From: a bacterium
Lineage (GTDB): Bacteria > Hydrothermota > Tepidihabitantia > SM23-42
Direction: 5' to 3'
Assembly: GCA_029933705.1 (NCBI GenBank)
Contig: JAOZNQ010000004.1
Coordinates: 1 to 33,635, forward strand
Length of the DNA stretch: 33,635 nt
Below, piece after piece: positions 20,977-33,535 of the stretch. The position numbers were made by a program, and so were the translations under genes. The notes beneath the pieces were generated by a model that worked only from the letters and a program-made list of their open reading frames with translations, had not been told where the DNA came from and made no database searches. Position 1 is the stretch's first letter. Each line of letters begins with the position of its first letter.

Positions 20977-22992
20977 TTATTTTAATAATTGTGCAAAATT
21001 GCGGAGAAGAGATTCTTCAATTTGAATTAAATTTATCGAATTGAGGAGTGTAAGAAAACCGTCGATGTCGAGAGCTAGGTAGTGGTCTTCAATCTGATAT
21101 TCTAAGGGAAGGTCATAAAAGTATGCTCCACTACCCAGGGCATCTTCTAAGCGTCGGATATTTTCCTTGATGACCTGACGAATCGTATCAGCACGGGGTG
21201 TCGGGAATTTCGGGTCAACTGGCTGAAATTGATTGAGGATGAGCAATTTTCCTTCGAGGTCGATCGTTTCAATGCCCTCTTTGGTCAGTGCCTCGGCAAG
21301 GATGAATCCATATAATGAACCGAACAGGTGCAGGATATGGGTGTCCTTTCCGTCATAGATAAAAGGGAATTCCAAAGCGGGAATCTCAGGAAAGAGTTTT
21401 TTCTTTAATATCGGGGCCAGGAGGTAGTTATATGTTCTCTCACCCTTTCCTTCAAAGACCTGGGCGAGGGCAGAGGCGTCACGGATGAACCGAGCATAGA
21501 CCTTATGCTCTTTTTTCTGAACCTGAACCGTTTCCCAGCAAGCACCACCCAGGATGAATTTTTTACGCACATAATAGATTCTGCCGATCAGGTTACCCCG
21601 GGCGATATCAAAGACATCATATTCACCGAAACTGATTTCGGCGATATTGGAATGAATCTTTCCCCAGCTGATCTTCTTTTCCAGTTTTTCAGAGTCGTAG
21701 TATATTCCTGGCCGCATCTCTTTTATCAGTCCATCGTCAAGCAGTTTCTTGAATACGGTTTTTATCTGGATTTCGTTATATATCGGTTCGAAGATTCGAT
21801 AGAGGCTTTTTAGTGTGGTGCCGATGCGTCGGCGTTGATATAGATAAGAGAATATCTGTTGGGGAATTATGGATAGGGAGGGGTTGTATCTTCCGGCAAA
21901 GAGTTCTCCTTTCTGGGCACATTCAAAGTAGCATTCAAAGAGGAGTTTTTCCCAGTTATCTTTGTAGATACCCAGCGCAAAGAGTCGATTCTGACGGCGA
22001 TTCCCTCTTCCGATACGCTGGAGCAGTGAAGGGATGTTATAGGGTGGACGATGGAGCACAATGCAGTCAACATCTCCAATATCGATGCCCAGTTCCAAGG
22101 TTGAGGTTGCACACAGGATTGCCCGATCATTCTGTGCCATCTCTTTTTCAACATCCTCACGCCGATTTCGGTTGAGGCTGGCATGATGGACTAGAACCCT
22201 ACCTTCGAATGGCGGTCGGTTGAGACGTCGGGAAAATGATTCGGCATAACTTCGGGCATTGAAAAAAATCAATATCTTTTTTAAATGGCGGTTTCGGGCG
22301 ATTTCGAGTAATTCCTTTTCAAAGCGGTTCTGGGAGATGAGCAGATATTCAATCCTCTTTGGCGCCTTGAGAAAGCAGACTGTAGGGTTTTCAAAATATC
22401 GTTTGCCAATATTGAGGTCATCAATTGTTGCAGAGAGGGCACAGTATTGAATATCTGAGGTTATGCGACGCAGGCGATTCAATAATATTCTTAACTGGTC
22501 ACCCCTTGGTGTATTGTCCAGAAGATGTATTTCATCGAGCACCACCACCTTCAGGTTTTTAAATATTTGAGGATTTCTGGTCAGGAGGGAATCGAATGAC
22601 TCGGGTGTTGTCAAGACTATCTGGGGAAGTTTTTTGGGTGTAATCCGAGGGTGGTCCCCGGTTTTGACACCCATTTTTATATCGAGATAGGTCAGGGGTT
22701 GAATCAGCCTGCGATAGAGGTCGTTCACCAAGGCACGGGTGGGTGAGATGTATAAGATAGAAAGATGCGGAGCGTTGAGCAGACCCTGGTCCATTAACCT
22801 TTCAACCAGAGGGGCGATGACCGCTTCGGTCTTGCCGGTGGCAGCAGGTGATATCACAACAACATTCTTTCCTTCCAGGATATGTGGGATGGTCAGGGTT
22901 TGAATTTCGGTAAAAGAGCCGAAGTGTCCAAAGAATGGATGCCAGGTTTTTCGAAGTTTCTTTTTGATTTCCAGAATCTTTTTTTCTGTCAA
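20977..22992 (-). CDS. Lhr-like SF2 DEAD/DEAH-box helicase (BrxHI/SngC-like)
   Basis: Q motif FTEIQ, SPAATGKT, SPTRAL, DEIH, SAT, HHASL, TSTLELGIDIG, QRIGR; further domains after the helicase core. Confidence 0.9.
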   Translation of the reverse strand: MTEKKILEIKKKLRKTWHPFFGHFGSFTEIQTLTIPHILEGKNVVVISPAATGKTEAVIAPLVERLMDQGLLNAPHLSILYISPTRALVNDLYRRLIQPLTYLDIKMGVKTGDHPRITPKKLPQIVLTTPESFDSLLTRNPQIFKNLKVVVLDEIHLLDNTPRGDQLRILLNRLRRITSDIQYCALSATIDDLNIGKRYFENPTVCFLKAPKRIEYLLISQNRFEKELLEIARNRHLKKILIFFNARSYAESFSRRLNRPPFEGRVLVHHASLNRNRREDVEKEMAQNDRAILCATSTLELGIDIGDVDCIVLHRPPYNIPSLLQRIGRGNRRQNRLFALGIYKDNWEKLLFECYFECAQKGELFAGRYNPSLSIIPQQIFSYLYQRRRIGTTLKSLYRIFEPIYNEIQIKTVFKKLLDDGLIKEMRPGIYYDSEKLEKKISWGKIHSNIAEISFGEYDVFDIARGNLIGRIYYVRKKFILGGACWETVQVQKKEHKVYARFIRDASALAQVFEGKGERTYNYLLAPILKKKLFPEIPALEFPFIYDGKDTHILHLFGSLYGFILAEALTKEGIETIDLEGKLLILNQFQPVDPKFPTPRADTIRQVIKENIRRLEDALGSGAYFYDLPLEYQIEDHYLALDIDGFLTLLNSINLIQIEESLLRNFAQLLK

Positions 22993-22999
22993 TGTTCTG

Positions 23000-24283
23000 C
23001 TATTTGAAAACAGGCGTCAATCGATGCCAGTCGAATGTAGCAATTGTGAATTTAATGAACTCCCTCAGGTCGCCTGAGGCCCGGGGGTAGGCATTATTGA
23101 ATATCCGCTCTTTTCTTTCGGGTTGGAGGTTGAAATCTGGATACGCCTTTTTATAGACTGTGTATAGGTTGTTATAGATTAATTCGAATTCTGATTTACT
23201 GAACTTACGAAGCGTCATTTTTTGTTCTACAATACGGTTAAGGTCATCTAAGTCATGATAACTGTGAATCGGGGTGGTGGCAAGTATCAGCAGGATATTC
23301 GGTTCTCCATAGATGTATGGAGTTGGACGGACACGGTTATGTAGCATTGATCTATCAATTTTTTTTAGCTTTTGATTGTTGAGGGCAGCATAGATCAGTC
23401 CGATGAGAAAGCTCTTTCCCCGAAGATAGAGGGTGTTGTTCCAGATATGGGTGATGGTTTCAACCTCATCAAGGATGATTACCAATCCACCCATATTTTT
23501 GAGTTTAATCAGATAACTCAAACCGGTAAGGATATAGGAATAGAAGTCCGCTGCGGTGGAGAAGTCATACAGGGCTGGAATCGACTGTCCACCACGCACC
23601 CGAAACGGTGCCCGGGTATTTGTTGCATAGTCCTTGGTTGATTCACCTTCAATCCACTGCCAGAATACCTCGGTCTGGTTGTCTCCGTTGTCAAGGCGGC
23701 GCAGGTGTCTGAAGACCGGGCTGAGGAAACAGTGGTCTTTGATCTGTATTGAACTCAATTCTTTGAGCAGGTCTCGGTATGTATAGACACAGCCATCCTT
23801 TATGTAACGCAGATTGTGGACAAGTTCCCGATAGATACGCTTGGGGCGATAAAGGGGTGTCTCCTGCGGATTCAATTCACAATATGCGGTAACATAACCA
23901 TATTTTAAGGCGATATGGTGGATATACTCTAAGAGGTGGGTTTTGCCTGAACCGTAGGAGCCTTCAATCAGATAGACCCCACCGCGCCCCTTTTTCAATG
24001 CCTTCAACCCTTTTTCAATCTGGGCGATTTCATAACCCCGGCAGAATGTGAAAAACTCAACATCCTGGTGTGAGACGATGCCCAACCGAAAGGCCTCGAT
24101 TAACCGCTTTGAGGAGATTTGATTGAGTTTGATATTGGGTATTTCGATGGTCTTGAGCCAGCGGGCAGGCAGCCATAAGGTCAGGCCACAATAGAACTCC
24201 ACCTGCACCTCCTGGCCATCCCATTTTCTATTTTTTATAACCCCTTCACCAAAGATCGGGTGGGCGACAATTTTCGCTTTCAT
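23000..24283 (-). CDS. DUF2791/BrxD-like P-loop ATPase with N-terminal Tudor-like motif
   Basis: IEAFRLGIVS..F, GSYGSGKTH, VIILDEVE; N-terminus VAHPIFGEGVI...VQVEF. Confidence 0.8.
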   Translation of the reverse strand: MKAKIVAHPIFGEGVIKNRKWDGQEVQVEFYCGLTLWLPARWLKTIEIPNIKLNQISSKRLIEAFRLGIVSHQDVEFFTFCRGYEIAQIEKGLKALKKGRGGVYLIEGSYGSGKTHLLEYIHHIALKYGYVTAYCELNPQETPLYRPKRIYRELVHNLRYIKDGCVYTYRDLLKELSSIQIKDHCFLSPVFRHLRRLDNGDNQTEVFWQWIEGESTKDYATNTRAPFRVRGGQSIPALYDFSTAADFYSYILTGLSYLIKLKNMGGLVIILDEVETITHIWNNTLYLRGKSFLIGLIYAALNNQKLKKIDRSMLHNRVRPTPYIYGEPNILLILATTPIHSYHDLDDLNRIVEQKMTLRKFSKSEFELIYNNLYTVYKKAYPDFNLQPERKERIFNNAYPRASGDLREFIKFTIATFDWHRLTPVFK

Positions 24284-24299
24284 ATCGGGTGTTTAATTT

Positions 24300-25550
24300 T
24301 TAATATTCTTCCTTTTCAACCGCTTCATGCTCTTTTTCTGAGAGCATTTTTACTGTGGACCTGAGGATCTCCCTTGCAGTCTCTTCGGTTATCAGGGTTT
24401 GCTCCTGTTTTAACCTCTGATAGGCCTCGATTATGCCGACTACAAATATCCTTCGGTAGCTGATATCGAGTGTCTGTAATTCCAGTGCGGCTTCAACCAG
24501 ATTCTTCATTGATGGAATGAAAAGGTTATCTTTTAATCGACAGTCATAGGCGATTTCAAAGATATTCTTCAATTTTTTGCCGAGTCGCGTCAGGAAATCA
24601 ACAGGTTCAAGTCCCAGCTCTTCAAGGTTGATTTTTACACCCATTGGATTGATTCTGGTAAAGTTTGACCTGAGCCGTTGTTTTAAGGCCTCATAGACAC
24701 CGCCGGTTCCTTCAAGGAGAAGATTCTCATCAGGAATCGCATAGAAGAACATTGCCCCAGGAAGACGCGAATTTCCGCATTCATCAATGAGTTGCCTCAG
24801 ATTATCAAGGGCTCGACGTTTATCCCGGGCTGAAGAGATACTCATCCCCCTTTCTGCCTCATCAAAAAGCAAGATCAATCCAGAATAGCCCATTGCGTTG
24901 ATGAATTGAACCAGACTCCTTAACATCCTGAAGGCATTACTCCTGTCGATTCTTTCTGATATCCGATATCTGAGCCGCAATTCCTTGGGCACATCCTCAC
25001 CCTTAAGCCATTGAATTACTTCATAAAAGCCTTCCTCATCTTCGTTCTTAAGATTCAGTATTGCAGCCTTGATTGCATTGGCGAAACTTGAACTTTCAAG
25101 TCGTGATAGTTTCATCAGGATGCCGGTGCTTTTCTTATCGATGTCTTTCAAAAGAATATCGATGCCGATCTGGTCAGAAAATGGCTGCCCGTTTTCTAAG
25201 GGGGGTGCGATATTGAGCACAATCTTTTTGTAGACCAGTTCCAAGCGGTCAAATGGACATTCGGTTGGGCTCAGTGGTGCATAGCTTGTAACATAGTTGT
25301 TCTTCCAGGCGAGATCCCTGAGCATATAAAGAAAATGGGTTTTACCACCGCCATAATTTCCCGTTATCATCTTAAATGAAGAGAGATTCAATTTAAGTAT
25401 ATCCCTTAGATATTCCTCTTCAATCACTTTCAGGAAAGGTTCCAGGCCGACACTGAAATGTTCAATTCCAAACTGGGGCGGGGTACCAGAACTTCCCAGT
25501 TGATGGATTATCGCCTTGGCGGTTTTTTTATCCAGCTTCACCGTATTCAT
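24300..25550 (-). CDS. DUF2791/BrxD-like P-loop ATPase
   Basis: AIIHQL..SGTPP..G...FSVG, GNYGGGKTHFL, QWLKGE, GYSGLILLFDEAE, GVYEALKQRL. Confidence 0.85.
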   Translation of the reverse strand: MNTVKLDKKTAKAIIHQLGSSGTPPQFGIEHFSVGLEPFLKVIEEEYLRDILKLNLSSFKMITGNYGGGKTHFLYMLRDLAWKNNYVTSYAPLSPTECPFDRLELVYKKIVLNIAPPLENGQPFSDQIGIDILLKDIDKKSTGILMKLSRLESSSFANAIKAAILNLKNEDEEGFYEVIQWLKGEDVPKELRLRYRISERIDRSNAFRMLRSLVQFINAMGYSGLILLFDEAERGMSISSARDKRRALDNLRQLIDECGNSRLPGAMFFYAIPDENLLLEGTGGVYEALKQRLRSNFTRINPMGVKINLEELGLEPVDFLTRLGKKLKNIFEIAYDCRLKDNLFIPSMKNLVEAALELQTLDISYRRIFVVGIIEAYQRLKQEQTLITEETAREILRSTVKMLSEKEHEAVEKEEY

Positions 25551-26383
25551 TTTTCAAATGAGATATATGCATAGTGGGTTCCTTCGCCCTGTTCATTCTC
25601 AGGGACCCATAAAAATTGGAGTTTATTAAGGGTGGCATCGAAGGTCGCTACATACAACCTCATTCCCTGCCGGGTATATCCTCCCCTTTTTAACTGATAG
25701 ATGAGATAGCCCAGTTTCATTCGGGAGAATTCATTGTAGTTTTCTCTTTTCGGCTCAATAAAAAATTTTTTCGGTTGATTCAAGAAGACAAATTGTGTCA
25801 AAACTTCAGTTAAAAGGGCTCGGTCACCAAACGGTCTTTTCTTTAATAGTATCGTCCTTTTGTATGCCTCATAGAGTTTCTGGTATAATTCTCCAAGGTT
25901 GGTGCAACTCTTCCTCAGTTCTTCATCAACCTTTTTTATCGTTTCATAAATTGTGGTGGTCTGGAGTGGTATCCTTGCTCTTATCTTTTCAATCTCTGGA
26001 CCAAAAAAGAGGGTAGCAGAGCCGAATTCGAAGTCCAGTTTCAGGGTAAACAGTCCGATTCGCATTATCGGATACTGACCCCTCAGTGCGACCCCATCTT
26101 TTTCCAGGAGAGTTTTCAGCTCCTGCCCGAACCTGAAACGGAATTCTTCTTTAATCTTCTCTAAATTCTCTTTTTCTGTATTGATGAACCTGTTCAGGGA
26201 GCCTTTCAATCCAGGGTCTTCGATTTTGTCTTTTATCTTATTGATTTCCGTGAGTTTTTTGTCGAGGGGATAGGCATTCTTCAGGGGTTCCTGCTTCAGT
26301 CTATTATAAACCTGGAGAAGCTTTATGAGTTGATTGTTCAATTTTGAAAGTGATTTTAATTGCGACAGTAACTCCTGTTCCAT
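25547..26383 (-). CDS. Hypothetical protein (helical/coiled-coil N-terminus), first gene of the ATPase-helicase operon
   Basis: SD AGGAG; 4-bp ATGA overlap with the next gene; no family recognised. Confidence 0.85.
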   Translation of the reverse strand: MEQELLSQLKSLSKLNNQLIKLLQVYNRLKQEPLKNAYPLDKKLTEINKIKDKIEDPGLKGSLNRFINTEKENLEKIKEEFRFRFGQELKTLLEKDGVALRGQYPIMRIGLFTLKLDFEFGSATLFFGPEIEKIRARIPLQTTTIYETIKKVDEELRKSCTNLGELYQKLYEAYKRTILLKKRPFGDRALLTEVLTQFVFLNQPKKFFIEPKRENYNEFSRMKLGYLIYQLKRGGYTRQGMRLYVATFDATLNKLQFLWVPENEQGEGTHYAYISFEK

Positions 26384-26445
26384 CTATATCTCCTGTTTAA
26401 AGTCTGTTACCGATTGAATAGATTTTCTGCCCATTTCCATTTATA

Positions 26446-26473
26446 ATCATATTCAATAATAGAGGGGTGTCAA
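26446..26473 (-). promoter_or_regulatory. Promoter TTGACA-16-TATGAT of the ATPase-helicase operon
   Basis: Hexamers read directly. Confidence 0.7.
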
Positions 26474-26600
26474 GACTATTTGATTTATGGAAAGAAGGGG
26501 CATCGGTCTGAGATAAAAATCCATAGAATTTCTTTGACTTAATTTGGAAGGGCATCTTATGAGATACAGCGAAGGGGATTTCAGCGGTTTATGGTAATTA

Positions 26601-27956
26601 TCACCTCTTCTGATTCAGGAACCTTTCAATCTCATATTCTTTTTGTTTTATTAACTTCTCATAGAATTTTATTATATTCATACCGGTCTCATCACCGTAG
26701 ATTTCTTTTTCTGCCTTTAATGCCTTCACCGTCTTCTCAAAGTCACTCTTTTCTTTGAGCAGATTCTTTATTCGGGAAGTTACATAAGCGATCCTGCTCC
26801 TCTGCTTCAGCCTCTTTCTTATGATATATTCAAACAGGACTATCCCGGTAGGGATCAGAAGAACCGCAAGGATGGAGATGAGTTTAAGATTTACGGGTAT
26901 ATTTGAAGAGAAGAATACTGCAATAATTGTCGCCACGCCGCCGATCGAGCCGAGTACGGTTAAAAGATATTCAAGCCTTCTTGTCGCAGATGTGAGAAGA
27001 CGGGACTGTCTGTTTTCGATTATTTTACCAATGTCACCGATTATAAATTCTATTGAATTTATATTCTTATCTATCTGCTCTTTGTATCTTTGTAATCGGC
27101 AGGCTTCATTCAATTTTTCCGGAATATCCAGCGCAGAATAGAGTGATTCTACATACCCGAGACTGGCAATGACTTCGAGAAAGTTCACCCGCTTTGTTTC
27201 CAGAATTTTCTCCTCCCATTCCCATTCTATCGCCCTTTCAGTTCCAATCCCGGTTCTCAAACCGGTAAGGTCTTTCTTTAAATCATCCATCCATCCTGCT
27301 GTGAAACCTGCATATTTTTTATAGAAAGAGAGGACGAGGATAAAGAATAGCAGCTTTTTCTCTATTCTTTCTGTGAGCAGATAAAATATCCTGCCCTTGT
27401 GGACAGATATCCTATCCTGGTCTATTTCAATCTCAGAGCAACCTGCAGGCAGTTTTGACTGTCTTGAGATGATGTAGGGGAGGTCAAAACCGACAAAGAG
27501 CTGTTCCTTCCCAAGAAAAAGGAAGTTGATGCCTGAATTCTTTACCACATCTTCTTTCACCCGTGAAAAGGAGATTAAATCGCCGGCCTCCTCCAGGGTT
27601 TTCAGTTTGAATATTTTCAGAAAGAATTCAATGAGGAATCCGTATAATGAAGTTGTTATAACTTTATCACCTATCTGGAATTTAAAATTTTTGAGGAAAA
27701 GCTTTTCGAGCTCCTCATAACTCTTTTCACTCCAGATATTGAGTTCAACAATTATCAAACTAATACCACTGGAACTTATATACGCCTCGATTGTAAAATT
27801 CCTGTCCAGAAATTTGCCCTGGACAAGCTGGACCTTAAGGGTTAGATGGTTGTGAATTATTTCAAAACTCGATTCAGGATAGTCTGGACTGATATACTCC
27901 TTAAATTTTGAAATATCCACAGGCCCACCGCAGAAAAAAGGCACCACTATCTTCAT
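26601..27956 (-). CDS. Hypothetical membrane protein with CorA-like layout (soluble domain, long helices, 2 TMs, C-terminal coiled coil)
   Basis: TMs YLLTVLGSIGGVATIIAVFF and LISILAVLLIPTGIVLFEY; no GMN motif. Confidence 0.7.
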   Translation of the reverse strand: MKIVVPFFCGGPVDISKFKEYISPDYPESSFEIIHNHLTLKVQLVQGKFLDRNFTIEAYISSSGISLIIVELNIWSEKSYEELEKLFLKNFKFQIGDKVITTSLYGFLIEFFLKIFKLKTLEEAGDLISFSRVKEDVVKNSGINFLFLGKEQLFVGFDLPYIISRQSKLPAGCSEIEIDQDRISVHKGRIFYLLTERIEKKLLFFILVLSFYKKYAGFTAGWMDDLKKDLTGLRTGIGTERAIEWEWEEKILETKRVNFLEVIASLGYVESLYSALDIPEKLNEACRLQRYKEQIDKNINSIEFIIGDIGKIIENRQSRLLTSATRRLEYLLTVLGSIGGVATIIAVFFSSNIPVNLKLISILAVLLIPTGIVLFEYIIRKRLKQRSRIAYVTSRIKNLLKEKSDFEKTVKALKAEKEIYGDETGMNIIKFYEKLIKQKEYEIERFLNQKR

Positions 27957-27963
27957 TATAGTT

Positions 27964-27991
27964 ATGATATCTGATAAATGGAGAATGTCAA
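27964..27991 (-). promoter_or_regulatory. Promoter TTGACA-16-TATCAT, ATG 7 nt downstream
   Basis: Hexamers read directly; no SD. Confidence 0.7.
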
Positions 27992-28040
27992 GTAAAACAT
28001 TTGGAGTTAATTCTCTACATTCTACATTATTCAGTGAAAA

Positions 28041-28170
28041 TTAATCAGTTCTCAAATATCCATAGCAGGATGTGATAATGTAAGGGAACGTTTTAACCAT
28101 TCTATAACAGCTAATGAATAATAGAATAATGCCTATTACCAGATAAAAAGCTGAAATGAGTATTTCCTCC
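28041..28170 (-). pseudogene. Possible truncated fourth cassette ORF (ILISAFYLVIGIILLFISCY...)
   Basis: GGAGG just after attC3, then a hydrophobic frame without an ATG. Confidence 0.3.
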
Positions 28171-28196
28171 TTTAATTTTACATTTATCGTTATGTC

Positions 28197-28277
28197 GCCT
28201 GATGCTCCGGGGATATGTGAAGTTTGCGATAGCAAATTTGGGCTGAGCGAAGCGACCCACATACCCGCTGGTTAGGC
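28197..28277 (-). mobile_element. attC site 3 (R' degenerate)
   Basis: R'' GCCTAAC, L boxes GCGGGTATGTG/CACATATCCCCG, R' reads ATCAGGC instead of GTTAGGC; the R'' flank AGCAATGTCGCCTAAC mirrors the cassette start GTTAGGGGACGTTGCT. Confidence 0.8.
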
Positions 28278-28287
28278 GACATTGCTT

Positions 28288-28593
28288 TTAACTTTTCACT
28301 ACCTGTATACCCATTATTTTGACTCCGTCTTCTGTTTTTACCGATAATGTTGCTGGTTCTGTAATGAGACACTGTCCTTCTTCAATATTTACTTTCTGTT
28401 GATTAACCCTTACCTCTGCCGTTCCTTTAATAACATAAAAGATGACGTAAGAAGACATTTTACAATCCGGTATCTCTCCACCAGGTGAGAGTTCGATAAT
28501 CCTTACCTTGAATTCCTTAGCCTCGTAAAAGACATTCTTTCCTCTTTCCTCATAAGGATATACCTTCATTGTTTTAACATCAAATACTTGCAT
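28288..28593 (-). CDS. Cupin-domain protein (cassette 3)
   Basis: ELSPGGEIP, IFYVIKG.AEV.V......EEGQ cupin pattern; metal-binding His residues not evident. Confidence 0.75.
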   Translation of the reverse strand: MQVFDVKTMKVYPYEERGKNVFYEAKEFKVRIIELSPGGEIPDCKMSSYVIFYVIKGTAEVRVNQQKVNIEEGQCLITEPATLSVKTEDGVKIMGIQVVKS

Positions 28594-29146
28594 TATTTAC
28601 CTCCTGATTTTGCTTTATTGCTTTTTTAATCAGCCACTCTATAGATATTCCCATTACTACCACAAAAATAATTGTTAGAACAAGTCTTGTTACCATAAAT
28701 TTGAACCCAAGGAATTGAAGTTCTATCATTTCCTGTGGAAGTTTTATACATGCCCACGCAGAGAGGAAGGCAATGATACATGATATTTTAGCTCCTTTCT
28801 TAAGTAAAGCAGAGGCCATTGGGAAAGCTGCATAAAGGGGACCCGTTGGTAATGCACCCATCAATATACCAAGAAAAACTGCTTTTATTCCAGCAGTTTT
28901 GCCCAGATGCTTTACAATCATTTCTTTTGGCACAAACACACTAAAAAGACCCATCAATATCATTACAGCGGGAAGTATCAAAATCATTTCTATGAAAAAC
29001 TTTCGTGATGCTGTGAATACAGGCGTTCGTTTATCAGGAAAGATCGACAATAAAATTATTGCAATAATTAAGGTAGCTCCAAGAATGATAATATCACGTT
29101 TCACTCCGTGCCTTTGTATTTCTTTTTCTTTAGCATAACCTCTCAT
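28580..29146 (-). CDS. Permease subunit, DUF318/ArsP-like (cassette 3)
   Basis: IVKHLG, GALPTGPLYAAFPMASALLKKGA, ELQFLG..F...RL. Confidence 0.8.
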   Translation of the reverse strand: MRGYAKEKEIQRHGVKRDIIILGATLIIAIILLSIFPDKRTPVFTASRKFFIEMILILPAVMILMGLFSVFVPKEMIVKHLGKTAGIKAVFLGILMGALPTGPLYAAFPMASALLKKGAKISCIIAFLSAWACIKLPQEMIELQFLGFKFMVTRLVLTIIFVVVMGISIEWLIKKAIKQNQEVNNASI

Positions 29147-29631
29147 AGAATCGCCCCCATGAGAATACCGATGATAATAGCAATAAGAAAACTTATTCCG
29201 TTTCTCAGTAAAGCCATTTTCATCCCCAATTCTTTTATTTCTAAGGGCAGTGTAACCATACCTATCATTGTCAGGGTGGTTATAAATACTGCAACTGATG
29301 TAATCGAGGCTCCATTTTTAAGTAAAGACGCCGCTAAGGGAAAGGAAACCAGAGAGGGGATATGTAACAATGCTCCTAATAGTGCCACAATAAGCACTCC
29401 ACCAAAACCTGCCCGTTCGCCAACGATTTTAGAAATTTGACTCTGGGGGACGAACCCCAGAAGCAGACCTATAAGGATTATAATAATAAGAACAGTAGGT
29501 AGAATATGAAAGAATGACTTCAATGCCACGATTAATGCTTGTCTTGCTTTCGCCCGACTTTTGATAAATGCAGATATTAAACACCCGAAAGCAAAAACAT
29601 TTATAAATATGACAGTTGTATTCATAGGCAT
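29143..29631 (-). CDS. Permease subunit, DUF318/ArsP-like (cassette 3)
   Basis: ISKIVG, FPLAASLLKNGAS, TLPLEIKELG..ALLRN. Confidence 0.8.
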   Translation of the reverse strand: MPMNTTVIFINVFAFGCLISAFIKSRAKARQALIVALKSFFHILPTVLIIIILIGLLLGFVPQSQISKIVGERAGFGGVLIVALLGALLHIPSLVSFPLAASLLKNGASITSVAVFITTLTMIGMVTLPLEIKELGMKMALLRNGISFLIAIIIGILMGAIL

Positions 29632-29669
29632 TCCCTTTTTACATTTAATTTTAAATATTTAGCAACGTC

Positions 29670-29758
29670 CCCTAACGTTCTCAGCATTAAAGAAGTTTTT
29701 GCGAAGCAAAAATTTGGGTGAGTGCCGTAAGGCACGAACCTTTTATGCTGTGTTATAT
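29670..29758 (-). mobile_element. attC site 2 (intact)
   Basis: R'' ATATAAC, L'' CAGCATAAAAG / L' CTTTAATGCTG, R' GTTAGGG, internal hairpins; R'' TCATATAAC is complementary to the cassette start GTTATATGA at 31797. Confidence 0.9.
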
Positions 29759-29770
29759 GAAGTGGCGGTT

Positions 29771-30604
29771 TCATTTTGTTACTATCAACACTTTTGTAAC
29801 TGCTGTATATGTTCTCTTGCCAAAAGTAAAAACAATCTCATCATTTTTTGAGACCGTTTCCTCATCAAAGAAATTATCAATCTTTTGAAACACAAGAGCA
29901 AAATCTCTTTTCAATTCCCAACTTCTTTCAGGATTTTCTTTGTCTAACAAGACAACAAATAATCTGTTATCGGCTCCAAATCTCTGAGCGCCTTGATTTT
30001 CATACATCCAAATTGCTAACTCTTTAGGGTTTTCTACTGCATAAATCGGATTGTAATCTCGTGGCAGATAGGTTACCTTTAAATCAAACGGTTGACCATC
30101 AAAGAAGATGTCAATTCCTTTTATATTTTTGATAGTAGGAATTACTTTGGGGTGAGTGCTTATATGTTCTTCAATCAATACTGTCGTCCAATGATTGAAC
30201 CAGGTACATATTACATAATTGCTTACATCGTTATGAAGTTTAGCTTTAACATTATTCAACAAGTCATCATACCTTACAAATCTTCTTACATATTCCGCCT
30301 GTATCTTTTGGTCTAATTGTCCCTGAACCACACCCCACGAAAAAGTTTTAACCTTCATTAATTCCTTTTTTAAATCTTCATCTGAAATAATAGCTCTTCG
30401 TTCTTCGATTCTCTCTCTATATCTTTGTTTAATAAATTCGTTAACAATCTCCTCATTCGGTTGTCTTTCAAAAATCCTCTTAATAATCTCGGTTGCCTTT
30501 CCGCTATTAGAAACACCCAACTCTGACGCCAGTATTTTTAACTGTGGCACTTTAATACAACTGAGTTTCAAATTCAAAACCTCTTTCTGGCTCAATAATG
30601 GCAT
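29771..30604 (-). CDS. Putative type II restriction endonuclease (PD-(D/E)xK) with N-terminal SAP-like motif (cassette 2)
   Basis: GIDIFFDGQPFDLKVT catalytic-like motif; adjacent to the MTase; SD GGAGG. Confidence 0.7.
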   Translation of the reverse strand: MPLLSQKEVLNLKLSCIKVPQLKILASELGVSNSGKATEIIKRIFERQPNEEIVNEFIKQRYRERIEERRAIISDEDLKKELMKVKTFSWGVVQGQLDQKIQAEYVRRFVRYDDLLNNVKAKLHNDVSNYVICTWFNHWTTVLIEEHISTHPKVIPTIKNIKGIDIFFDGQPFDLKVTYLPRDYNPIYAVENPKELAIWMYENQGAQRFGADNRLFVVLLDKENPERSWELKRDFALVFQKIDNFFDEETVSKNDEIVFTFGKRTYTAVTKVLIVTK

Positions 30605-30615
30605 ATTACTTCCTC

Positions 30616-31773
30616 CTATTTTTTCTTAAAAAGCATAATATATTCATGCTTGAAGATATAAAATCCACCAACTAATGCTCTATATCGCCAAAGTTCTTTT
30701 TGGTTTCTTTTCCCCCGTGTTTCTTCAAAGTTCTTTACAATGATACTTTTCAATAAATACCCTCTTTTTAGCACCTCTTGCATACAATAAAAACCTAAAG
30801 GTATCCATTCACCCTTAGAGTATTTGTCCCCAATAACAAGAGCAAAATATCTTCCTTTCTCTAAGAATGGGGTTGCATTATCTACTACCTCGCCAAACAT
30901 CTTTAAAAATTCTTTGGTATTCTTTGCATTTGATAGGTCTTTTTCATCTTTTGAAAACTTAATAATGTCATGATACGGTGGATGCATAATAAGAAGTTGA
31001 ACTTGATTTATCTTATGTTTCTCTAAAACTTCCTTAATGTTAATTGTCCTGCTATCACCAATTATTACCTCTGTGGTTACTTTATATCTATTATATTCTT
31101 TATCAATCAATTCTTTTGCCTTTTGTGCGACTTCTTGATTCAATTCTATCCCGATGCCATTCCTTCCTAACCGCTCGCATTCTATCAAAGTAGTTCCACT
31201 TCCAACAAAGGCATCTAAAACCCAGTCTCCTTTTTTAGTATATCTTAACATCATTTGATGAGGGATTTGAGGGATGAAATTACCCCAATACCAGGCAAGA
31301 TGAGCTCCTGAAGAATCTCTTTTATCTAATATCCAAAGACTATCTGTTGTGATTTCATCATATTCTTTCCATCTTAGAAGATTTATATCATTGATCTTAT
31401 TAGTCTTTACTTTTTGAACACCATTTTTTAGTCGTTTCAAATAGTATTTTGCTCTCTTAAGTGTCCTTGCTTCTAAAATCTGATTTAATTCAGAAATTAA
31501 AACATCTCTACGTAAAGAAATCGTATCCCCGTTTAGATCTATATTTAATAGTCCTTCTCGATCGTTTCTAGGAGAATTTATAATTTCCTTTAGGAATATA
31601 ATTTTATTTTTTAACAAAGATGGATTATTTTGATCGTTTATTCCCTCCAAGAAAGAGACCAATTTCTCTTTATTGAATATAACTGTTCCATAAGTAAAAG
31701 GCGCTGATTCCAAATTCTTAAAAAGGGTTGTTTGCTTATCTTTATTATTCATAGCTTTTATTCCTTTACTCAT
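30616..31773 (-). CDS. Amino (N4-C/N6-A) DNA methyltransferase (cassette 2)
   Basis: GNFIPQIP, motif I DAFVGSGTT, GIELN, motif IV HPPY. Confidence 0.9.
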   Translation of the reverse strand: MSKGIKAMNNKDKQTTLFKNLESAPFTYGTVIFNKEKLVSFLEGINDQNNPSLLKNKIIFLKEIINSPRNDREGLLNIDLNGDTISLRRDVLISELNQILEARTLKRAKYYLKRLKNGVQKVKTNKINDINLLRWKEYDEITTDSLWILDKRDSSGAHLAWYWGNFIPQIPHQMMLRYTKKGDWVLDAFVGSGTTLIECERLGRNGIGIELNQEVAQKAKELIDKEYNRYKVTTEVIIGDSRTINIKEVLEKHKINQVQLLIMHPPYHDIIKFSKDEKDLSNAKNTKEFLKMFGEVVDNATPFLEKGRYFALVIGDKYSKGEWIPLGFYCMQEVLKRGYLLKSIIVKNFEETRGKRNQKELWRYRALVGGFYIFKHEYIMLFKKK

Positions 31774-31790
31774 TTTGAAACCTCCATTTC

Positions 31791-31857
31791 ATATAACCTC
31801 CTGTTAAGTGACCCCGATAGGGGCAAGGTGCAAAGCACCGCAGAGCGCCCGATGCAC
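31791..31857 (-). mobile_element. attC site 1 (left arm/R'' apparently deleted)
   Basis: R' GTTATAT present, with internal hairpins; the flank GTGCATCGGGC mirrors the cassette start GCCCGATGCAC, but the expected ...GCTCAAC R'' is missing. Confidence 0.7.
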
Positions 31858-31864
31858 AACAGCA

Positions 31865-32545
31865 TTAAACCTCATCCTCCTTTTTCGGTTGCTTAAATCG
31901 TTCTAACAGTTGTTTTCTTTCTTCTTCTACATCTTCCTTTGTATACATAATTACTTTTATTTTATGAAACCCAGTAGAAAGATGGTGAATATCTTTTTTG
32001 ATTTCTTCTACATTTTTAGCTATTTTGTATAAAGGTGGTTCACCCAATTGGCTTAAACCAATTAGCTGAGAAAAATCAATCATATATACATCCTTGTATG
32101 TTTTACCTATGCTATTTTGATAAGTAACCCTAATTTCAAAAGGCTTTTTTGTTTTTTCTTCAAAATTCTCAATTGTTAAAAAAAATTGTAGTTTTTGGTT
32201 AGGAGCAAGGTATTTTAGACCATTTTTCATAAAACCCAACTCAGATAGGAATTTACCTTTCATATATTCAAAATCTGGGTTAATCTCAAATTTTATATTG
32301 TAGGCCGGTCCTAACCCTATGTTTTGTATGACCATATCTATAAGATTTATCCATTCTTCTCTTGGTTGAATGGTTACTGAAACTTTCAGTTCTGTTTGAG
32401 CTTCTCTCATTTTTCTAGTTTCTGAAACCAGTTTCCATGTCAAAATGGCATATACTATAGTAGCAATGGCTACAACTGCTGAAAATATTACAGCAAAAGC
32501 TCCGCTATTTTCGTTTAGGAATTCCACTAATCCCATTATTTTCAC
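31865..32545 (-). CDS. Single-TM hypothetical protein (cassette 1)
   Basis: N-terminal TM AFAVIFSAVVAIATIVYAILTW, then QNIGLGPAYNI beta-rich domain; AT-rich. Confidence 0.8.
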   Translation of the reverse strand: MKIMGLVEFLNENSGAFAVIFSAVVAIATIVYAILTWKLVSETRKMREAQTELKVSVTIQPREEWINLIDMVIQNIGLGPAYNIKFEINPDFEYMKGKFLSELGFMKNGLKYLAPNQKLQFFLTIENFEEKTKKPFEIRVTYQNSIGKTYKDVYMIDFSQLIGLSQLGEPPLYKIAKNVEEIKKDIHHLSTGFHKIKVIMYTKEDVEEERKQLLERFKQPKKEDEV

Positions 32546-32580
32546 CCTCTATTCCTAATCTTGGTGCATCGGGCATTTCC

Positions 32581-32657
32581 GCTCAACTTGGTTATATCCG
32601 CACTTTTGGTGCTGATATGATTCCAATTTTGGAGGATATCCGCACTTAGTTCGGATA
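32581..32657 (-). mobile_element. Integron attI site
   Basis: GGATATAACCAA-GTTGAGC core; 12-bp direct repeat AAGTGCGGATAT at 32594-32605 and 32636-32647; lies between the integrase tail and the first cassette. Confidence 0.7.
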
Positions 32658-32690
32658 TATTACCTTTCTCTGAATGTTGCCATAATGTTT

Positions 32691-32792
32691 TCATTCTTCA
32701 CCTCTTCCATTAAGATTTATGGTATCTATCGGGCTCACTATCTTTCCCAGATTTTTTGCACTAATATGGGTATAAATTTCCGTGTTTAACAT
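32691..32792 (-). pseudogene. intI: Integron integrase C-terminal remnant (33 aa)
   Basis: MLNTEIYTHISAKNLGKIVSPIDTINLNGRGEE*, matching the TTxIYTHV...SPLD tail of IntI-type tyrosine recombinases. Confidence 0.8.
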
Positions 32793-32829
32793 CACATAAT
32801 AATATATAGCAAAGAAAAGCAAAAAGTCA

Positions 32830-32905
32830 AGTCTTTTTTGCCGTATGTCCTATATAGGTTTTTCCAGTTGTTGATGATTACAGGATATAGACATAGAATG
32901 TGCAT
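32830..32905 (-). pseudogene. GIY-YIG nuclease N-terminal relic
   Basis: The +1 frame from ATG 32905 reads TFYVYIL*SSTTGKTYIGHTA. Confidence 0.65.
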
Positions 32906-32916
32906 TTTTTTTTGAG

Positions 32917-32988
32917 CTCCTCGGGCAGGACTCGAACCTGCAACCCTCCGGTTAACAGCCGGATGCTCTACCATTGAGCTACCGAGGA
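32917..32988 (-). tRNA. tRNA-Asn (GTT), CCA not encoded
   Basis: Acceptor stem TCCTCGG/CCGAGGA, D arm GCTC/GAGC, anticodon arm TCCGG-CTGTTAA-CCGGA, T loop GGTTCGAGTCC. Confidence 0.97.
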
Positions 32989-33409: not shown

Positions 33410-33490
33410 AGAACCTCCTTTCAAGCCTTATATAAGTTCGAGAATATGTAAGACTTACACATCCTCCAACACACGGTTTGGCTTATTTTC

Positions 33491-33518
33491 ATTTTAGCCA
33501 AAATTTGAAATTTGTCAA
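33491..33518 (-). promoter_or_regulatory. Promoter TTGACA-16-TAAAAT for the cold-shock gene
   Basis: Hexamers read directly. Confidence 0.7.
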
Positions 33519-33535
33519 TGGTTTATTTTTTTATT

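Follow-up and report, generated by a model that had tools for sequence, protein, structure and literature searches.

Does a cassette array belong with the integrons if the recombinases of its family lack the domain by which integron integrases are recognised? The question is raised by a locus towards one end of a 33,635-nt stretch of DNA (hereafter the window; contig JAOZNQ010000004.1 of assembly GCA_029933705.1) from an uncultured WOR-3-type bacterium, placed by GTDB in the Hydrothermota (Tepidihabitantia; SM23-42). Positions 28192-32831 very probably represent an integrase-less, partly decayed array of three cassettes, belonging to an integron-like gene-capture system of WOR-3 and several other phyla. 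As far as can be judged from sequence, the array functions like an integron by all structural tests run, yet by the criterion of its integrase it is not a member of that group. Four lines of evidence argue that its hairpin sites are recombination sites: the ends of each cassette mirror one another, the sites are linked to a single integrase family, a genome of the same genus has the locus without the array, and one of the cassettes recurs in a second array.

Cassettes and recombination sites

All genes between 20977 and 32545 lie on the minus strand, and coordinates are given throughout as positions of the whole stretch. Read in the direction of the genes, the features of the array and its immediate surroundings are:

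32916-32988, minus: tRNA-Asn(GTT), found by ARAGORN and by Rfam (tRNA, 74.2 bits); it flanks the array and lies outside the element
85 nt: gap between the tRNA and the promoter-like block
32801-32831, minus: promoter-like block (TTGACT, 18 nt, TATATT), which heads the array and stands in for the bulk of an integrase gene
32691-32792, minus: 3' remnant of an integrase gene, 33 codons (MLNTEIYTHISAKNLGKIVSPIDTINLNGRGEE), identified by protein comparison with the full integrase P0001 of a relative
32575-32660, minus: attI-like site, identified by its inverted repeats, its fold and the same architecture in relatives
31797-32586, minus: cassette 1, with one open reading frame (ORF; 31865-32545, 226 aa, N-terminal membrane helix)
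31776-31857, minus: attC1 remnant, interior deleted (31791-31857 as first predicted)
29676-31796, minus: cassette 2, with a methyltransferase gene (30616-31773) and a 277-aa ORF (29771-30604)
29665-29764, minus: attC2, intact (88.7 bits under covariance model R1)
28203-29675, minus: cassette 3, with two ArsP-family halves (29143-29631 and 28580-29146) and a small cupin (28288-28593)
28192-28283, minus: attC3, the last site of the array (69.7 bits under R1; crossover triplet ATC)
26478-28191, minus: rest of the stretch lacking from the congener G001, with a 451-aa ORF (26601-27956); cassette status not established

The original prediction, made from the letters of the window, had read this region as a decayed integron of three or four cassettes at tRNA-Asn. 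Its listed features are present at or within a few bases of where it had placed them. The attI that it put at 32581-32657 spans 32575-32660, the mirrored cassette ends are real, and the hairpin core that it saw in both attC2 and attC3 (CCCAAAT, hairpin, CTTC) is found throughout the site family. The cassette DNA is AT-rich as described, with a GC content of 0.347 in 28192-32840 against 0.446 in positions 1-26477 of the window and 0.429 genome-wide. Three cassettes are borne out; for a fourth, model R1, run over the window with filters off, gave no attC-like site in 26478-28191. Two weak matches elsewhere in the window, at 22239-22339 (13 bits) and 33458-33532 (11.5 bits), were taken as chance.

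The mirrored ends are seen in all three cassettes, as an 11-nt pair in cassette 1 (32564-32574 and 31847-31857), over 22 nt at 91% in cassette 2, and at 14 of 16 positions in cassette 3. Across 22 cassette units from 13 arrays, spanning 0.3-3.5 kb, the first 11 nt downstream of GTT, compared with the same unit's end in reverse complement, agree at 7.9 of 11 positions on average, against 5.1 when the ends are non-cognate, and none of 10,000 permutations was as good; one pair from the window is mis-assigned in this test because attC1 has no model match. In the related genomes G038 and G041, the order is integrase, attI and then cassettes closed by sites like attC2 and attC3, each cassette start being mirrored at its end.

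The same-genus genome G001 matches the window over 24003-26477 and in the tRNA, which is 100% identical, with 267 unrelated nt in place of 26478-32916. Cassette 3 is nevertheless found in G001, in another array, where a different site precedes it: its counterpart there, at positions 34691-36107 of contig C8, shares 78% identity, and the homology starts exactly at the GTTAGG box. That array of G001 also contains three composite junctions (L031 3830-4000, 5500-5720 and 7100-7400), in which the 5' half of an attC (to CTTC) is joined to a shared 30-nt stretch and the promoter-like block, and a short leader then leads into an attI of one palindrome whose end reads AACGAGTT.

The sites were compared through model R1, built from eight aligned sites of three genomes (two from the window, two from other contigs of the same genome and four from G038 and G041), with a set structure comprising an outer R stem of four pairs and an inner L stem of ten. 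In these training sites 92.6% of cells pair, against 27-42% with a slid partner, and eight of the ten inner-stem pairs show compensatory changes. The corresponding values for 27 sites not used in training are 91.4% against 27-39%, with compensatory changes in all ten inner-stem pairs. The consensus runs ..TAAC, 1 nt, L'', a variable hairpin, (C)CCAAAT, a second hairpin, CTTC, L', 5 nt and GTTA..; CTTC is present in 27/27 sites and CCCAAAT, exactly, in 14/27. Within each of seven loci the sites are on one strand, and the bottom strand is predicted to be the more stable in 32 of 35 sites. A bottom-strand bias has been described for attC sites (PMC5027507). The 1-nt and 5-nt spacers of the present family differ from the geometry described there; a canonical attC is expected to have extrahelical bases near L'' and, in its centre, a symmetric unpaired spacer. 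Rfam, run over the whole window with E up to 1, passes the tRNA alone and gives no match to an attC family.

The original prediction had called for a search of the genome for other attC clusters, and these exist: R1 finds 11 sites on six contigs, with at least three truncated platforms, and a BLAST search of the whole genome places relatives of attC3 and attC1 on contigs C29 and C37. Beyond this genome, R1 finds sites in 37 of 81 related genomes and in 23 of 37 genera.

The three sites of the window differ in how well they have been preserved. R''/R' and L''/L' boxes around a hairpin, the hallmark of an attC, are complete in attC2, where R'' ATATAAC is followed by a 1-nt spacer, the inner stem, CCCAAAT, the hairpin, CTTC, the inner stem, a 5-nt spacer and R' GTTAGGG; a 92% identical copy is present on contig C272 of the same genome. 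Against dinucleotide shuffles of both strands, attC2 folds with z-scores of -3.7 and -3.2. For attC3 the values are -18.5 and -19.4 kcal/mol (z -3.1 and -3.0), and here too the hairpin and boxes are intact except at the crossover, which reads ATC; only three of the 34 other aligned sites depart from GTT here. In attC1, R'' TCACTTAAC (31803-31811) is followed by AGGAG and R' GTTATAT (GTT at 31795-31797). It scores 14.2 bits under R1 (E 0.71) and folds no better than shuffles (z -0.9 and -1.9). As it is homologous to an intact site on contig C37 of the same genome, of which it keeps R'' and R' with everything between gone, attC1 is a remnant with an internal deletion. Of the sites that the original prediction proposed to fold, attI, attC2 and attC3 thus fold beyond shuffles (z -3.0 to -4.3) and attC1 does not. 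In some attC sites a conserved module of two hairpins (CTCTGCGG..GCACC..TTGCCC..GGGG) lies just 5' of R''; it is present at 31812-31845 of the window, at 150-195 of C37 and at about 1370-1440 of locus L012 (G041), and it splits the extended arm pairing with the cassette start.

The attI-like site is composed of inverted repeat 1 (32636-32660), CCTCCAAAATTGG (32623-32635) and inverted repeat 2 (32594-32621), with a simple site ATATAAC-CAA-G|TTGAGC at 32575-32599 and the predicted crossover G|TT at 32587|32586. Its fold exceeds dinucleotide shuffles at z -3.9 and -4.3, none of 200 being as good. In G038, G041, G031, G032 and G017 the same architecture follows directly after the integrase stop on the same strand, as two inverted repeats around CC..AAAT..TGG and then ..AAC, 2-3 nt and GTTR..GAAAT, and the same design is found after the integrase in Nitrospirae, Thermodesulfovibrionia, Geoglobus and Archaeoglobus records. 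An integron is expected to have its attI beside the integrase gene with crossover at G|TT; in the window the attI follows directly on the integrase stub, and recombination would take place at this G|TT.

Positions 32570-32839, which take in attI and the block, have a 77% copy on contig C250 of the same genome. A third truncated platform lies at a contig end (C222:14316-14691) and consists of the block, an integrase stub that is longer (about 48 codons) and carries a hairpin-like insert, an attI, and the beginning of a cassette. A motif like CCCAAAT is common to attI, where it lies between the inverted repeats, and to the attC loop, and may mark a shared protein contact.

As regards cargo, the protein of cassette 1 matches no Pfam or PADLOC family, and the Atlas gave unnamed clusters only. 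The methyltransferase of cassette 2 is recognised by PADLOC (MTase_II, 492 bits) and Pfam (N6_N4_Mtase), and is 62% identical to that of the second cassette behind the full integrase of G041. Cassette 2 is accordingly a putative type II restriction-modification pair in which the 277-aa ORF, by its position, would be the endonuclease; in the Atlas this protein falls in unnamed clusters, with weak endonuclease leads scoring 0.78-0.80. Cassette 3 matches Pfam ArsP_1 twice, as a split ArsP-family permease pair, and Cupin_2.

Four public metagenome runs were compared as contigs, which break at attC sites; none of the RNA runs contains the stretch. Cassette 1 (31865-32545) reaches a summed depth of about 1000 in run X2, on contigs about 4% different, against about 10 for its flanks, and the attC2 region (29580-29851) has a depth of 104-2870 in the four runs against about 7-10. 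Cassette 1 and the site family are far more abundant in vent and sediment communities than this genome is. Contig joints linking 28225-28243 to 31793-31821 were considered as deletions at the locus and rejected, as their 16-38 other letters belong to other intact attC sites of the community.

The integrase family and its truncated platforms

Which recombinase would have served these sites? Full integrase genes of 352-404 codons are present in five of the 81 related genomes (G038, G032, G041, G017 and G031), where they are co-oriented with the cassettes and encode an extra N-terminal domain. The three members scored give 230-244 bits against NF040815 (site-specific tyrosine recombinase/integron integrase; cut-off 220), 217-225 against TIGR02249 (cut-off 265) and 156-160 against PRK15417, the IntI equivalog (cut-off 435). 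The TIGR02249 cut-off is reached by no gene in this genome or in the 81 relatives.

By sequence, the best match in the PDB is the Vibrio integron integrase IntI4 (2a3v, E 4.6e-44), but the alignment is in two pieces, and residues 180-238 of IntI4, the region of the IntI-specific domain, face only 17 residues of the query; the C-terminal ..SPLD tail aligns with that of IntI4. The IntI-specific domain is called defining and necessary in PMC9668308 and PMC8138268, the latter adding that the insertion is 'not fully conserved' in an integron-like subgroup. The system is therefore integron-like, and the strict label 'integron' does not apply: where an integron would have an IntI-family integrase with the IntI-specific domain, the window has a 33-codon stub, and the full relatives fall below the integron-integrase cut-offs. 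Of the original reading as an integron, attI, attC sites and cassette array therefore stand, and the membership implied by the name does not.

An AlphaFold model of the integrase has a mean pLDDT of 69, with residues 11-85 at 83-89. Its best structural match is XerA (Z 16.2 and 14.4; PDB 4a8e and 5hxy), ahead of IntI4 (Z 12.7). The N-terminal domain (model residues 12-82) gives middling scores against T4 UvsW (1rif_B; Z 6.7, rmsd 2.2 over 62 residues) and XPB (Z 5.8-5.9). Among four homologues scanned, two pass the cut-off of 25 bits for Pfam HARP (PF07443), at 26.1 and 25.8, a third scores 18.3 and the fourth, like P0001, has no match; the N-terminal 120 residues of P0001, scanned at E up to 5, gave no Pfam family at all. 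From these homologues and the middling fold match, the domain would seem to be HARP-like in some members of the family. The N-terminal domains of HARP, UvsW and XPB bind branched DNA, and the corresponding domain of the integrase might help to read the attC junction.

P0001 itself carries the NCBI name 'site-specific tyrosine recombinase/integron integrase [candidate division WOR-3 bacterium]', and proteins closely related to it, at 58-78% identity, are found in Nitrospirota, Stahlbacteria, Thermodesulfobacteriota and Acidobacteriota. In 25 public loci with relatives of P0001, all eight R1 matches lie downstream on the strand of the integrase. They fall in five of the 13 loci with at least 1 kb of downstream sequence, among them loci from Nitrospirota, Deltaproteobacteria and Geoglobus.

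The stub in the window belongs to this family, 18 of 24 residues being identical to residues 368-391 of P0001 (397 aa; E 7e-12), which bears out the claim of decay. There are four copies of the 33-codon stub (in the window, on C250 and twice in G011, a genome of a different genus), with most of their differences at third codon positions; the copies of the window and C250, for example, are set apart by six synonymous and two non-synonymous codons, these being small numbers. The length of the stub behind the promoter-like block varies, from about 48 codons on C222 through 33 in the window, on C250 and in G011, to seven on C29, a pattern that looks like nested deletions of one truncated ancestor. 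The block scores 10/12 in a consensus scan. In full, at 31 nt, it occurs four times in the genome (window, C250, C222 and C29), always at platforms or cassettes, and not at all in the shuffled genome, and it also stands at the head of both platforms of G011. The block would have promoter activity, the array probably being transcribed from it.

A search of the genome for an intact integrase, also proposed by the original prediction, turned up no complete member of the family, the best hits being two Xer-like genes that share 34% identity with it. With no full family integrase in the genome, the array is probably frozen.

Competing explanations and the state of the array

How, then, would the system work, and what is left of it here? 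In intact relatives, the platform begins with a tyrosine recombinase of 350-400 aa in the orientation of the cassettes, formed of the extra N-terminal domain and an IntI/Xer-like core. Its stop codon is followed by a double-stranded attI, with two inverted repeats round the CCCAAAT-like motif and a simple site ..AAC-N2-3-G|TT.., and next by the cassettes, each closed by an attC hairpin of 80-105 nt. By analogy with integrons, the recombinase would pair attI with a folded single strand of attC, strand exchange taking place at G|TT; cassette circles would be taken up at attI and transcribed from a promoter upstream. The chemistry of strand exchange, the strand used, the promoter activity and the present immobility of the array are in this sense inferred.

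In the window, the promoter-like block has replaced the recombinase gene down to its last 33 codons. As attC1 is without its interior and attC3 without GTT, only attI and attC2 look usable, and cassettes 1 and 2 could at most be excised as one unit, which would still require an integrase acting in trans. The array would then amount to a frozen repository, its accessory genes encoding a membrane protein, the two parts of a restriction-modification system, a permease pair and a cupin.

Several observations weigh against this account. No recombination was seen: a single joint between contigs (29774 to 31772, run X1) bypasses the reading frames of cassette 2, and its shorter arm, of 26 nt, is too little to count. 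Among the closer and the more distant relatives of the integrase the link to the sites differs, R1 matching five of seven public loci at 41% identity or more (four firmly and L050 weakly, at 24.9 bits and E 0.002) and none of six at 30-39%. Because the integrase is without a domain held essential for attC recombination, the chemistry may differ from that of integrons. The geometry of the sites is not that of textbook attCs either, with R/L spacers of 1 nt in 24 of 27 and of 5 nt in 24 of 27, and with a conserved loop motif. R1 was trained on sites that include attC2 and attC3 of the window itself, and the alignment of the 27 further sites (A2) was fitted to R1 and leans towards the model. The promoter scan is not significant by itself, yielding 22 sites against 23.6 in shuffles. 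Finally, the assembly is in 302 contigs and 96% complete, and an integrase gene could have gone unassembled.

The strongest of the alternatives is that the array is the remnant of a canonical integron served by a true IntI, the domain-less recombinase being a bystander. The R boxes do fit the integron consensus (..YAAC / GTTR..) with crossover at G|TT, and the bottom strand is favoured as it is in attC. Furthermore, published surveys commonly report attC clusters that lack an integrase, and IntI1 recombines attCs from archaea (PMC9668308). Against this, no gene of the genome or its 81 relatives reaches the TIGR02249 cut-off, the stub in the window comes from the domain-less family, attI stands directly after the stop of a domain-less integrase in five WOR-3-type genomes and in other phyla, and every one of the R1 matches in public loci is just downstream of such an integrase. 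We consider a canonical origin of this kind improbable.

The tRNA raises a second possibility, that of a genomic island which a phage-type integrase of the classical kind inserted into tRNA-Asn on its 3' side, with the hairpins as unrelated repeats. Such an island would agree with the 6.4-kb AT-rich stretch missing from the congener, which starts 85 nt from the 3' end of the tRNA with an integrase stub beside it. An island of this kind is recognised by an integrase next to the tRNA and by flanking repeats of the tRNA 3' end, yet a search at the ends of the indel found no direct repeat, whether derived from the tRNA or of another kind, and none of ten other array or integrase loci has a tRNA. 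Moreover, the stub belongs to the cassette-array family, attI ends in a G|TT site and not in a tRNA-derived core, and the platform of G011 that is near a tRNA-Asn lies 2.2 kb from it, in the opposite orientation and with two genes between. A tRNA island is therefore very unlikely and, given the missing repeat and the ten loci, the association with tRNA-Asn that the original prediction named is best regarded as incidental.

The tRNA-Asn of G011 (L036 1014-1448, corresponding to G011:C45:27013-27447) is interrupted within its anticodon loop, where a group I intron is inserted (RF00028, 91.5 bits, E 5e-24). The same two tRNA half-matches are present on contig C121 of genome G003, the tRNA-Asn of the window is intronless, and ARAGORN missed the split gene.

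That the hairpins are merely structured intergenic repeats (REP-like sequences, terminators or RNA elements) with no role in recombination would fit their position downstream of genes, their folding on both strands, their multiple copies and a covariation that by itself does not distinguish DNA from RNA folding, but scarcely any room is left for this reading by unit ends that mirror each other across 0.3-3.5 kb, by the association of the sites, in different phyla, with a single integrase family and its attI, by the same GTT-bounded cassette in two different arrays, and by a terminator scan in which none of seven terminator-like sites is at an attC, the stems being without following T runs.

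We therefore return to the integrase-less array of an integron-like system. It accounts for the 6.4-kb strain-specific stretch and for 11 assembly-breaking repeats in the genome, and a restriction-modification pair is seen to be carried as a cassette. The remainder of the G001-lacking stretch and the region beyond it can be described more briefly. The 451-aa ORF has C-terminal membrane helices and a promoter-like site (27991-27964), and Pfam and PADLOC scans gave no firm family for it. A defence-type gene set adjoins the array at 20977-26383 (minus strand), consisting of an SngC/BrxHI-like helicase (208.7 bits), two BrxD/SngB-like ATPases and a 278-aa protein of unknown type; this set has 75% DNA identity with the congener G001, which places it outside the indel.

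The wider interest of the locus lies in how integron integrases are recognised. They are defined, and searched for, by one extra domain that is held essential for recombination of folded attC sites, while a recombinase without it heads attC-like cassette arrays in WOR-3, Nitrospirota, Deltaproteobacteria and archaea. If the system is active, standard surveys would overlook an entire kind of gene-capture platform, entering its arrays as orphan clusters, and the family would be a natural test case for the origin of single-strand recombination from Xer-like enzymes. A bolder proposal, which we regard as possible but on balance doubtful, is that these systems form a separate branch of integron-like elements, spread over several bacterial phyla and the Archaeoglobi, in which the HARP-like N-terminal domain, as a structure-specific binder of DNA, and the CCCAAAT shared by attI and attC do the job of the I2 domain and the extrahelical bases; block-headed platforms without an integrase would here multiply on their own as expression arrays, maybe since a cassette can carry an attI.

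Relation to known gene-capture systems

A literature search found no publication combining integrons and WOR-3, in agreement with the original remark that integrons are little described in this lineage. Nor did it find a published description of integron-like arrays with a domain-less or HARP-bearing recombinase, subscription journals and supplements being outside its coverage. The nearest comparisons are with sedentary chromosomal integrons and with CALINs (clusters of attC sites lacking an integrase), as defined for IntegronFinder (PMC4889954). By the criterion quoted in PMC9668308, a CALIN has two or more attC sites, spaced by less than 4 kb, and no neighbouring integrase gene; attC2 and attC3 are 1.4 kb apart in a window with no integrase gene, these being sites scored by R1 and not by the canonical attC model. 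As in sedentary integrons and CALINs, the cassettes are co-oriented, the folded sites have ..AAC / GTT.. ends with a G|TT crossover, attI adjoins the integrase gene, the sites of any one lineage form a homogeneous family, defence genes occur in the cargo and the bottom strand is favoured. As in surveys of CALINs, arrays without an integrase outnumber complete ones, sites being present in 37 of the 81 genomes and a full integrase in five. Unlike sedentary integrons, the present family has an integrase that is without the IntI-specific domain, carries an extra N-terminal domain and is co-oriented with its cassettes; its attC sites have 1-nt and 5-nt spacers and a conserved CCCAAAT..CTTC core shared with attI; and in the window the integrase gene is replaced by a promoter-like block.

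Integrons have also been described from archaea (Ghaly et al. 2022, PMC9668308). In the account given there, the integrase is co-oriented with attI just downstream, attI is semi-conserved across phyla, most arrays are without an integrase, and some attCs are common to archaea and Nitrospirota or Desulfobacterota. The similarity extends to particular records, R1 matching one from Geoglobus and the same attI design following the integrase in both Geoglobus and Archaeoglobus. The difference is again in the enzyme, as the archaeal IntIs of that account carry the IntI-specific domain and the family described here does not. Some arrays of the present attC family may already be listed as CALINs in the supplements of the papers cited.

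A third comparison is with the Xer recombinases, and archaeal XerA in particular. The core of the integrase is close to theirs in both fold and sequence, with the structural scores and the NF040815 match given above, and like theirs it has no I2-type insertion. Xer enzymes act on a single dif site, in the resolution of chromosome dimers. Unlike them, members of the present family occur next to an attI and a cassette array, bear an additional N-terminal domain and finish in ..SPLD, a tail like that of IntI.

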